Shown here piece after piece: positions 1,320 to 3,527 of a DNA stretch of 64,000 nucleotides; the first letter of the stretch is position 1, and the number at the start of each line of letters is the position of its first letter. A program made the translations under genes and the position numbers. The notes beneath the pieces are model-generated. The model had not been told where the DNA came from, searched no databases, and worked only from the letters and a program-made list of their open reading frames with translations. Origin of the DNA: an uncultured Verrucomicrobia subdivision 3 bacterium (GTDB taxonomy: Bacteria > Verrucomicrobiota > Verrucomicrobiia > Limisphaerales > UBA11358); the NCBI GenBank assembly GCA_903835255.1, contig CAILMI010000026.1, positions 2,740-66,739 of the forward strand, written 5' to 3'.

Positions 1320-1667
1320 CTACGGTCTCAGGGTGTGACTGACGGAGACATGGCGCGCCTCCGGGATGATAAACTTTTTCACCTCCACAGAGACGGACTG
1401 GGGCTGGAACTCGGCCAGAATAGCCGCGGCGATGTCGGCGGCAAGTTTTTCAATGAGCTTCCACTCGCGGCCCTCGCCGAATTTCAAGAGACGCTGGGTG
1501 ACGGCGTAATAATCAATCGTGTCAGCGATGCCGTCGCTTTTGGCAGCGGCGGTGAAATCGGACTCCAGAACCACGGTCAGCAACAGGCGCTGGGGCCGGG
1601 CGCGTTCCGCGTCCGGCACGCCCACGCGGTAAAACACTTCGAGATCAACGAGCGAGATATTAGACAT
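1320..1667 (-). CDS. folB: Dihydroneopterin aldolase
   Basis: FolB motifs (VGVPDAERARPQRLLL, TIDYY, LIEKLA, VEVKK); 115 aa. Confidence 0.9.
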   Translation of the reverse strand: MSNISLVDLEVFYRVGVPDAERARPQRLLLTVVLESDFTAAAKSDGIADTIDYYAVTQRLLKFGEGREWKLIEKLAADIAAAILAEFQPQSVSVEVKKFIIPEARHVSVSHTLRP

Positions 1668-2787
1668 GGCGTTTCCGGGATGGGGAGGTCTGGTGGCCGC
1701 CGGTATTTTTTTTAAGCACCGCTGCGAGCAGGGTTCGGGTCGGCCGGTTTAACTTCAACTTTTTCGCCGCCGCCAGCGTCACCCAGCGGAACGCCTGCGC
1801 CTCGTGATTGAGCGTCACCTCCGACCGGCCGACAACGCGGCAGGTATAATTCAGGAGGATAAAATGGGCGTCGCGGTAAAACTCTTTCGAACGGACGCAA
1901 TCCTGCGCCAGCACAAATTGAATGTCCGCCACCTTGAGTCCGGTCTCCTCACGGATCTCGCGGCGCAAGGCAGCTGGGGAGGTTTCGCCCCACTGAATCT
2001 TGCCGCCGGGGATGCCCCACTTGTCGGACCATTTATGCGTTTTGACCATCAGCACTTCGCCGGCGCGGTTGAATATCAACCCCCCCACCGTCGGGATGGG
2101 GAGGCCCGGAGCGGCCGTTTTTTGACGGGAACTCCGGCGGTCCACCGCCGCTCCAAAATCCAGATCGCCCTCCTCCAAAGCCCGGCGCAATTCTCCCAAA
2201 TGCTCAACGATCAGGCCGGGCCGGGCGGCGCGAAGCTGCGCCAGCGTGTTGTAACCGGTCAGCACGGCGCAGGAATGCACCCCGCCATGGTGCGCGGTCT
2301 CGATGTCATGCTCCATGTCGCCGATAAACAGCGTCTGCTCGGGCCGGAGATTATTTTCGGCGAGCAGGTCGCGGATTTTTTTGCGCTTATCCCAGACATC
2401 GGTGTAGGGGCGGTCGAGATACGCGCCGAAGCCGGTGACGCGGGACTGCACGGCAAAGTGGTCGGAGTGAATGGTGCTCAGAAGAAACGTGCGCAGTTTT
2501 CGGGTCCGGCAGAACTGGAGAAACTCGCGGGCATGCGGTAGTTCCACCACCGTGTGCTGCGCCTCCTTGAACCGGCTGTGAAACCATGCTTCCAGCTGCG
2601 GCATCGGCACGTCCGGCGTGTGCCGGTCATAAAAGCCGGTGAAGGGCAGACTGAACTCGGCCCGGAATTGATCGAGAGACATCGCCGCCTTGCCCGCCTG
2701 GGCCAAAACATAATTGGAGGCTTCCAAGACCGCAGGCAGGTCGTCCACCAAGGTCCCCGACCAGTCGAAGATGATGTTTCGGATCAC
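1660..2787 (-). CDS. HAD-family phosphatase fused to a NUDIX hydrolase
   Basis: HAD motifs FDWSGTLVDD and FIGDMEHD; Nudix box GGKIQWGETSPAALRREIREETGL; overlaps folB start by 8 bp. Confidence 0.85.
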   Translation of the reverse strand: MIRNIIFDWSGTLVDDLPAVLEASNYVLAQAGKAAMSLDQFRAEFSLPFTGFYDRHTPDVPMPQLEAWFHSRFKEAQHTVVELPHAREFLQFCRTRKLRTFLLSTIHSDHFAVQSRVTGFGAYLDRPYTDVWDKRKKIRDLLAENNLRPEQTLFIGDMEHDIETAHHGGVHSCAVLTGYNTLAQLRAARPGLIVEHLGELRRALEEGDLDFGAAVDRRSSRQKTAAPGLPIPTVGGLIFNRAGEVLMVKTHKWSDKWGIPGGKIQWGETSPAALRREIREETGLKVADIQFVLAQDCVRSKEFYRDAHFILLNYTCRVVGRSEVTLNHEAQAFRWVTLAAAKKLKLNRPTRTLLAAVLKKNTGGHQTSPSRKRHV

Positions 2788-2873
2788 GCAATAATTTTAA
2801 CCATGAAACCTATGAAACACACGAAAAGTTTTACGCACTTGAAACTTGAAACCTGACACTGGAAACTGACCTC

Positions 2874-3527
2874 ATGCTCATCGCCTTCCACAAACCGTTC
2901 GGCGTCCTGTCGCAATTCACCGGGGACGGCTCGCCGAACCGCGCGCTGGCGGAATTCCGCTTTCCCGCCAATGTCTATCCCATTGGGCGGCTGGATGCGG
3001 ACTCCGAGGGATTGCTGCTGCTGAGCGACGAGCCGGCCTGGAACGAGCGGCTGCTGCACCCGCGCCACGCGCATGCCCGCGAGTACTGGGCGCAGGTGGA
3101 GCGGATCCCGACGCGCGAGGCACTGGATGCCCTGCAGCGCGGCTTGGTGATTCAAGGCCGCAAAACCCTGCCCTGTCGCGCCTGGATCTTGGAGCCGCAG
3201 CCACTAGTCGGACCTGCCACTCCCTGCGCGCCATCCTCCGCCCGCCAGAGCGCTGCAATTGATGACGTCGCGCACGGAGTGATGCATCCTACCTTGCCGC
3301 CGCGCAATCCGCCCATCCGCTTCCGCAAGAACGTGCCGGACTGCTGGATCGGCCTGGAACTGATTGAGGGCAAGAACCGGCAGGTGCGGCGGATGACCGC
3401 GGCCATCGGGCACCCGACGCTGCGGCTGATCCGGGCGCGGGTGGGCGGATTGCAACTGGGAGATTTGGCCGCGGGCGAATGGAAGATCCTATCCGAGGCG
3501 GAACGCGCGCGGGCGGCGCAGGATTAA
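2874..3527 (+). CDS. rluE: rRNA pseudouridine synthase (RsuA/RluE family) with an in-frame insertion
   Basis: GRLDADSEGLLLL catalytic motif, EGKNRQVRRMTAAIGHPTLRLIR. Confidence 0.85.
   Translation: MLIAFHKPFGVLSQFTGDGSPNRALAEFRFPANVYPIGRLDADSEGLLLLSDEPAWNERLLHPRHAHAREYWAQVERIPTREALDALQRGLVIQGRKTLPCRAWILEPQPLVGPATPCAPSSARQSAAIDDVAHGVMHPTLPPRNPPIRFRKNVPDCWIGLELIEGKNRQVRRMTAAIGHPTLRLIRARVGGLQLGDLAAGEWKILSEAERARAAQD
3207..3293. repeat. REP-like imperfect palindrome inserted in frame in the pseudouridine synthase gene
   Basis: 24-bp arms at 3207-3230 and 3269-3292 match 17/24 as inverted repeats; 87 nt = 29 codons. Confidence 0.7.

Follow-up and report, generated by a model that had tools for sequence, protein, structure and literature searches.

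A HAD-Nudix fusion protein coupled to FolB as a strong candidate for both phosphate-removal steps of folate synthesis in Verrucomicrobiota

Two overlapping genes of an uncultured Verrucomicrobia subdivision 3 bacterium (GenBank assembly GCA_903835255.1) raise the question of which enzymes remove the phosphates of dihydroneopterin triphosphate ahead of dihydroneopterin aldolase (FolB) in folate synthesis. The DNA that was analysed, referred to here as the window, is a stretch of 64,000 nucleotides of contig CAILMI010000026.1 (positions 2,740 to 66,739). On its minus strand, an open reading frame with a GTG start codon (1660..2787; 375 amino acids, product start MIRNIIFDWSGT) encodes a HAD domain fused to a Nudix domain, and it is followed by folB (1320..1667, minus strand; open reading frame with an ATG start codon, 115 amino acids), which encodes dihydroneopterin aldolase. 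Textbooks give the dephosphorylation of dihydroneopterin monophosphate to a non-specific phosphatase and, to our knowledge, no enzyme has been assigned to the removal of this last phosphate for about 50 years. The preliminary description of the locus had likewise held that the monophosphatase step generally lacks an assigned enzyme, which agrees with reviews from 2007 to 2026 that term the phosphatase non-specific or unidentified (PMC1971073, PMC4161248, PMC13259868); the 2026 publication labels the step 'P-ase = unidentified phosphatase' (PMC13259868). Searches of open-access full texts did not turn up any account of a HAD-FolB or HAD-Nudix-FolB enzyme; a report in a subscription journal could have been missed. 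From our analyses, the HAD-Nudix-folB module emerges as a strong candidate for both phosphate-removal steps of folate synthesis, and the earlier proposal that one polypeptide might carry out both steps receives support from comparative genomics.

The fusion gene and folB share 8 nucleotides (1660..1667, minus strand; ATGTCTAA), which run from the start codon of the latter to the stop codon of the former: the junction reads ...CGC CAT GTC TAA in the frame of the fusion gene and ATG TCT AAT in the frame of folB. Both open reading frames and the overlap, which had been described before, were confirmed, and an overlap of this kind implies translational coupling of the two genes. No terminator-like site was found between them on the minus strand. 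The junction is spanned by a metatranscriptome contig (covering 1382-1818) whose source strain is about 96% identical. All RNA evidence comes from short contigs of metatranscriptomes, derived from strains with about 95-96% identity, and it is compatible with co-transcription of the fusion gene and folB without proving it. The sequence is also present in lake-water metagenome runs.

The assignment of the downstream gene is well founded. Pfam FolB (PF02152) matches residues 4-110 of the 115-amino-acid protein with 86.5 bits, TIGR00525 (folB) gives 74 bits against a cut-off of 72.15, and the protein is the sole PF02152 match in the analysed genome, which is 3.17 Mb in size and 97% complete and in which the window is contig C26. 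Its catalytic residues E21, Y53, E73 and K98 are conserved with respect to Mycobacterium tuberculosis FolB (1nbu), as they are in 40 HAD-linked and 20 canonical FolB proteins. FolK and FolP are also encoded in the genome, together with a FolE2 equivalog that scores 287.6 bits (cut-off 215), and FolE type IA was not found in it. With FolE2, FolK, FolP and a single FolB the pterin branch is complete, which identifies the FolB of the window as the aldolase of the folate pathway. The product of FolE2 is dihydroneopterin triphosphate, the substrate pool expected upstream of FolB. Six Nudix genes were detected in the genome, including the HAD-Nudix fusion, and there is no NudB equivalog among them (best score 35 bits against a cut-off of 103). 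Another NudB-type enzyme in this genome was ruled out, since the five other Nudix genes all fall below the NudB cut-off.

The Nudix domain occupies residues 228-362 of the fusion protein (1702..2106, minus strand), with Pfam NUDIX matching residues 232-354 (86.6 bits). Its Nudix box (G262-L284, GKIQWGETSPAALRREIREETGL; 1936..2004, minus strand), read from the sequence, is an exact fit to Gx5Ex7REUxEExGU, and alignment A1 shows no variation at the box residues G262, E268, R276, E280 and E281. Together with the alpha/beta/alpha fold, this box places the domain among the Nudix hydrolases. The closest solved structure, both by sequence (E 3e-9) and by fold (target template modelling (TM) score of about 0.8 in Foldseek), is NudI, and a sequence search of the PDB returned no close solved relative. 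The AlphaFold2 model of the 375-amino-acid protein has two well-folded domains, with a mean predicted local distance difference test score (pLDDT) of 87.8. They are joined by a linker (residues 213-227; 2107..2151, minus strand) that is predicted to be disordered (pLDDT <50), and the predicted TM score (pTM) of 0.61 means that the relative arrangement of the HAD and Nudix domains is uncertain. A search with the fusion protein gave thousands of matches at E<=0.001; the best 120 of these are all full-length HAD-Nudix proteins with 68-98% identity and Verrucomicrobiota source names, and close relatives are named as Limisphaerales, Pedosphaera or 'Verrucomicrobia subdivision 3' metagenome-assembled genomes (MAGs).

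Residues 1-212 (2152..2787, minus strand) form the HAD domain, which was identified from Pfam, Foldseek and the conservation of its core as a C1-capped HAD-IA domain of the COG0546 or phosphoglycolate-phosphatase-like type. Pfam HAD_2 matches residues 5-175 (63 bits), and the model has a Rossmannoid fold with a cap, with pLDDT mostly >90 over residues 1-200. The best Foldseek matches are 3d6j, 2ah5 and 3mc1 (target TM 0.84-0.86), and a sequence search of the PDB found no close solved relative (best E 3e-5). Motif I reads FDWSGT (D8-W9-S10-G11-T12; 2752..2766, minus strand), with D8 as the nucleophile and Ser in place of the acid/base Asp at position +2. The preliminary description had drawn attention to this DWSGT in place of DxDGT, and the sequence bears it out. 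In canonical HAD monoesterases, the Asp at +2 is the general acid/base that protonates the alkoxide leaving group and activates water. The remaining canonical features, namely the nucleophilic Asp, the Ser/Thr of motif II, the Lys of motif III and the acidic pair of motif IV, are all present; the domain belongs to the fold class of HAD-IA enzymes with a C1 cap and not to the canonical DxD monoesterases, Gph or PhnX.

Conservation was assessed in 95 HAD domains that are non-redundant at 70% identity. Invariant residues are D8, W9, G11, T12, G156, D157, D161 and G178, and S10 (97%), D16 (98%), K134 (99%) and H160 (97%) are nearly so, the exceptions at position 10 being Ala or Cys. Cap residues N25, F41, F45, P48, Y53 and P58 are at least 90% conserved, and the same holds for S104 and T105 of motif II in alignment A1. 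The Ser at the Asp+2 position is thus a conserved signature of the family rather than a sign of degeneration, and the machinery for binding Mg2+ and phosphate and for forming the aspartyl-phosphate is intact. A degenerate HAD domain was ruled out by the family-wide retention of DWSGT and of the other catalytic core residues. The role of the Asp may be filled by H160 of motif IV, which is specific to the family, by D16, which follows motif I, or by assistance from the substrate. Among the 95 domains no conserved Lys was found in the cap (residues 17-100), so that a phosphonatase-like Schiff-base mechanism is not supported, and such chemistry was rejected.

These data also bear on a reading in which the HAD domain has no catalytic activity or turns over very slowly and serves to bind pterin phosphate, or as a scaffold that docks the Nudix domain or the substrate onto the FolB oligomer. 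The loss of the Asp+2 acid/base would fit such a role, as would the flexible linker with the uncertain domain arrangement described above, and the conserved aromatic residues F41, F45 and Y53 of the cap could simply bind the pterin ring. Nevertheless, conservation of D8, T12, S104/T105, K134, D157 and D161 is complete or at least 90% down to 32% identity, which is not expected of a pseudoenzyme, and operons of a stand-alone HAD and FolB exist without any Nudix domain. We regard a silent HAD domain as very unlikely.

Comparison with characterised HAD enzymes places the domain near, and outside, several known groups. With the COG0546-type HAD-IA proteins (Gph-like; 3d6j, 2ah5, 3mc1, 2hsz and the BT2127 pyrophosphatase 3qu2) it shares the Rossmannoid core and the helical C1 cap (target TM 0.74-0.86) as well as motifs I-IV; it differs from them in having DWSGT instead of DxDGT and in the family-specific residues D16, H160, N25, F41, F45, P48 and Y53. 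The Gph model TIGR01449 yields 50.6 bits against a cut-off of 180, so the domain falls outside Gph. A nucleophilic Asp without Asp at +2 is found in PhnX and in P-type ATPases, and D-W-[SA]-G-T resembles the motif of PhnX. However, the PhnX model TIGR01422 gives 22 bits against a cut-off of 220 and the conserved cap Lys is lacking, which sets the domain apart from PhnX, and the protein has none of the ATPase domains of the P-type ATPases.

How firmly is this fusion protein tied to FolB? The preliminary description had made conservation of the folB linkage across genomes a point to check, and the linkage held at two taxonomic depths. The order-level set comprised 80 loci with 62-76% identity, taken from species-representative genomes of a single order. 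In 77 of them, the next gene downstream in the same orientation is folB; of the three that differ, one has <1 kb of sequence on that side. The other neighbours are kept less often (RluE in 49/80, ComEC in 40/80 and UvrD in 5/80, compared with 77/80 for FolB). At the level of the phylum, 401 evenly drawn Verrucomicrobiota genomes were searched, and a DWSGT-type HAD was found in 46 of them at E<=1e-43. The next-best matches were at 1e-19, a gap which shows that the HAD clade is cleanly delimited. All 46 HADs read DWSGT. Of the 401 genomes, 367 have FolB, among them every one of the 46 that carry the HAD. Linkage was assessed in 45 foreign loci and the window with a FolB hidden Markov model built from the linked sequences, and FolB turned out to be fused to the HAD or directly downstream of it in 40 of the 46 genomes. 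In the main HAD-FolB genus (g8), two genomes without FolB are also without the HAD.

The association is covalent in many relatives. We found four architectures: HAD-Nudix with adjacent folB, as in the window, HAD-Nudix-FolB, HAD-FolB, and a stand-alone HAD with folB. When 50%-identity cluster representatives were searched exhaustively, seven proved to be single HAD-Nudix-FolB polypeptides and 16, by domain census, HAD-FolB fusions. Proteins of about 320-360 amino acids that match only the HAD part proved to be HAD-FolB fusions without Nudix in nine of ten cases tested, and a search seeded with one HAD-FolB fusion retrieved more than 100 further ones; the source names of these further proteins are Chthoniobacterales, Akkermansiaceae and Verrucomicrobiales. 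Stand-alone HADs had readable neighbours in two cases, and each time the next gene downstream is folB. The gene contexts of the HAD-FolB and triple fusions have nothing in common with that of the window. At 32% identity, a HAD-Nudix gene is overlapped at its end by folB over 4 nucleotides in a wholly different neighbourhood, and a triple fusion in the same branch is labelled Planctomycetes (one MAG). The order of domains in the fusions is always HAD, Nudix, FolB and does not mirror the order of the reactions, nor is there any need for it to do so.

A maximum-likelihood tree was built from 74 HAD domains with pairwise identities <62%, and in it the architectures are interleaved. Its well-supported branches force at least five changes involving the triple fusion, at least three involving HAD-FolB and at least seven involving HAD-Nudix, counts that are rough because some 'stand-alone' labels may represent truncated metagenomic gene calls. 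The interleaving indicates that fusion or fission occurred several times and that a single ancestral fusion is insufficient as an explanation. Further fusions were encountered in the survey, namely an Smr-HAD-Nudix protein (P0122, 483 amino acids) and a TP_methylase-Nudix protein (P0200, 378 amino acids) with a Nudix domain 56% identical to that of the window, both of them cluster representatives.

The recurrence of the pairing allows us to judge whether it could be a coincidence, in which a house-cleaning nucleoside triphosphate (NTP) pyrophosphatase of the NudI/MutT type and a phosphoglycolate-phosphatase-like HAD came to lie beside folB by shared ancestry. Such a reading could draw on the generic nature of the best-matching families (NudI and MutT; phosphoglycolate phosphatase), all far below their cut-offs, and on the fact that the 80 loci belong to one order in which the flanks are partly syntenic. 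Against this, FolB fusions come in several architectures and have more than one origin, the linkage is kept at 32% identity, in the triple fusion of the Planctomycetes MAG and among unrelated flanks, and the presence of the HAD tracks that of FolB. The recurrence in 77/80 loci together with the covalent fusions puts the pairing far beyond chance, and the fusions effectively exclude a coincidental neighbourhood; we rate this explanation as highly improbable. Mere synteny was ruled out, because the flanks change while the link to FolB persists and the fusions recur.

An analogous arrangement with a different phosphatase was found on a metagenome contig (Logan SRR17161169; L141:3168-4768). There, a Nudix-FolB fusion (P0398, 255 amino acids) is preceded, with an overlap of 7 nucleotides, by a Cof-type HAD-IIB phosphatase with the canonical motif DVDKT. 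Phosphatase, Nudix pyrophosphatase and FolB were thus brought together independently with a different HAD, in this single example.

Taken together, we consider it fairly probable that the Nudix domain converts the triphosphate to the monophosphate, that the HAD domain takes the last phosphate and that FolB follows. The fusion gene and folB would then form one operon for three successive reactions in the pterin branch. FolE2, whose gene lies in another part of the genome, would produce 7,8-dihydroneopterin triphosphate, from which the Nudix domain would strip pyrophosphate to leave dihydroneopterin monophosphate, the role played by NudB/FolQ in other bacteria. The HAD domain would remove the last phosphate through an aspartyl-phosphate on D8, and the translationally coupled FolB would cleave dihydroneopterin to 6-hydroxymethyl-dihydropterin for FolK and FolP. 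The data show the identities of the domains, their intact catalytic cores, the overlap of the genes and a lasting association with FolB by fusion or proximity; the substrates, the order of the steps and the compensation for Asp+2 are inferred.

This proposal assigns to the Nudix domain the same reaction as that of NudB of Escherichia coli, FolQ (YlgG) of Lactococcus lactis and AtNUDT1, with which it shares the Nudix fold and an intact box. The support for this reaction comes from context, namely the fusion or adjacency to FolB and the lack of a NudB equivalog elsewhere in the genome. The genomic association with folate genes is a further likeness to NudB/FolQ; the folQ gene sits in the folKEPQC cluster (PMC1971073). 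In contrast to NudB/FolQ, this Nudix domain forms one polypeptide with a HAD domain and, in relatives, with FolB as well, and NudB in the PDB (2o1c) matches it only at E 9e-6. The HAD domain would occupy the step of the 'non-specific phosphatase' immediately before FolB, its tightest partner. For that step the literature has no dedicated enzyme, whereas a conserved HAD clade is proposed here. Riboflavin synthesis offers a parallel, as its long-missing dephosphorylation was filled by HAD phosphatases of the YigB/YbjI/YcsE type. There too, the 'non-specific phosphatase' step of a vitamin pathway derived from GTP is performed by HAD enzymes, which differ from the present domain in having the canonical DxD, in often being promiscuous and in not being fused to enzymes of the pathway.

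Several observations weigh against this reading. The HAD domain lacks the Asp+2 acid/base, which a primary alkyl phosphate such as dihydroneopterin 3'-phosphate normally needs. The Nudix domain is not a NudB ortholog: it scores 29.7 bits with the NudB model NF006961 (cut-off 103), and its nearest relatives are NudI and MutT-type NTPases. In 15 HAD-FolB genomes an ortholog of this Nudix domain was not found (best E 3e-11), and its presence elsewhere in these genomes was discarded as an explanation on the same search. The five genomes of family f10, and genome G327, which encodes a HAD-Nudix protein, keep the HAD away from folB. The rough change counts of the HAD tree belong here as well.

Some of these points would be accommodated if the coupling to FolB is real and the HAD domain acts on a good leaving group or on another species of the pathway rather than as a dihydroneopterin-monophosphate monoesterase. 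Possible substrates are the gamma and beta phosphates of the triphosphate, removed stepwise, the pyrophosphate released by the Nudix domain, or glycolaldehyde phosphate; the last case requires that this FolB clade cleaves the monophosphate directly. HAD enzymes without Asp+2, such as P-type ATPases (DKTGT) and phosphonatase (DWAGT), act on activated phosphoryl groups or use extra catalytic devices, and they provide a precedent for this explanation, given that Ser, Ala or Cys at this position is universal in the HAD family studied here. The HAD-FolB lineages without an orthologous Nudix domain point in the same direction, as they leave room for the HAD to perform more than one step.

This explanation also finds support in the FolB proteins themselves. 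Those linked to the HAD form a distinct sequence type, with K-[FY]-[IV]-[LIV]-P after the catalytic Lys, where canonical Verrucomicrobiota FolB proteins have K-P in 20 of 20 sequences (K-P-x-A); the comparison covered window positions 1320-1667 and loci L095-L139 on the one hand and the canonical loci L142-L161 on the other. The HAD-linked proteins match Pfam FolB with E-values of 1e-15 to 1e-27, compared with mostly 1e-27 to 1e-40 for those from HAD-less genomes of the same class, and are thus about 10 orders of magnitude weaker than canonical FolB proteins. The motif may be either a signature of the clade or a functional adaptation. An adaptation to bind phosphate was ruled out, as the 40 linked proteins have gained no conserved basic residues relative to the 20 canonical ones.

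We nevertheless consider it doubtful that the HAD domain has such another substrate. In the many HAD-Nudix fusions, a HAD that merely repeats the removal of pyrophosphate would be superfluous, the cap has no conserved Lys for a phosphonatase-like Schiff base, and the linked FolB proteins have no newly acquired basic residues able to hold a phosphate. The canonical DxD of the Cof-type phosphatase in the analogous module points to an ordinary monoesterase step. Moreover, classical work reported that FolB does not use phosphorylated dihydroneopterin. Two more far-reaching readings, one in which the order of steps departs from the textbook, with this FolB clade cleaving the monophosphate and the HAD clearing the reactive by-product glycolaldehyde phosphate, and one in which the HAD is a mechanistically new monoesterase assembled on the FolB oligomer, seem unlikely to us. 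In the latter, the HAD would act on pterin monophosphate with H160, D16 or assistance by the substrate as its acid/base device.

The surroundings of the module provide some further observations. The fusion gene is separated from a divergent RluE-like gene by an intergenic region of 86 bp (2788..2873), which from the layout of the open reading frames may contain the promoter and in which no match to the sigma-70 consensus was found. The RluE-like pseudouridine synthase (2874-3527, plus strand) is matched by its NCBIfam model in two separate parts, as would be seen if the central portion of the protein carried an insertion. On the other side, a ComEC-like gene (plus strand, ending at 1302) converges on folB (minus strand, ending at 1320), with 17 nucleotides between the stop codons, and no terminator-like hairpin was detected between the two (1302-1320). 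In the genomes of family f10, which are about 2.2-2.5 Mb in size, the stand-alone DWSGT HAD adjoins a LOG-like (Lysine_decarbox) gene and a gene for a fusion of homocysteine S-methyltransferase (MetH) and MTHFR, as exemplified by locus L108 (G132:C1:1983067-1989672) and four others. Elsewhere in the genome of the window, a MutT-type Nudix gene (C55:97735-98067, minus strand) has an in-frame TGA at the conserved Trp of G-x-WEFPGG, reading GGL*EFPGG, and scores 107.9 bits with TIGR00586 when W is substituted; the TGA could be a sequencing error, the mark of a pseudogene or a recoding event.

The coupling of this HAD clade to FolB is of importance beyond the single locus, as folate synthesis is a classical target pathway of antibiotics. 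In Verrucomicrobiota and at least one Planctomycetes MAG the clade is firmly joined to FolB, which offers a concrete and clonable candidate enzyme, and the HAD-FolB linkage would extend to Akkermansia-type gut bacteria. Current annotations of these proteins as 'phosphoglycolate phosphatase', 'MutT' or just 'dihydroneopterin aldolase' mis-inform metabolic models. HAD catalysis without the Asp at +2, a residue regarded as essential for HAD monoesterases, once explained, would widen our knowledge of the mechanism of HAD enzymes.

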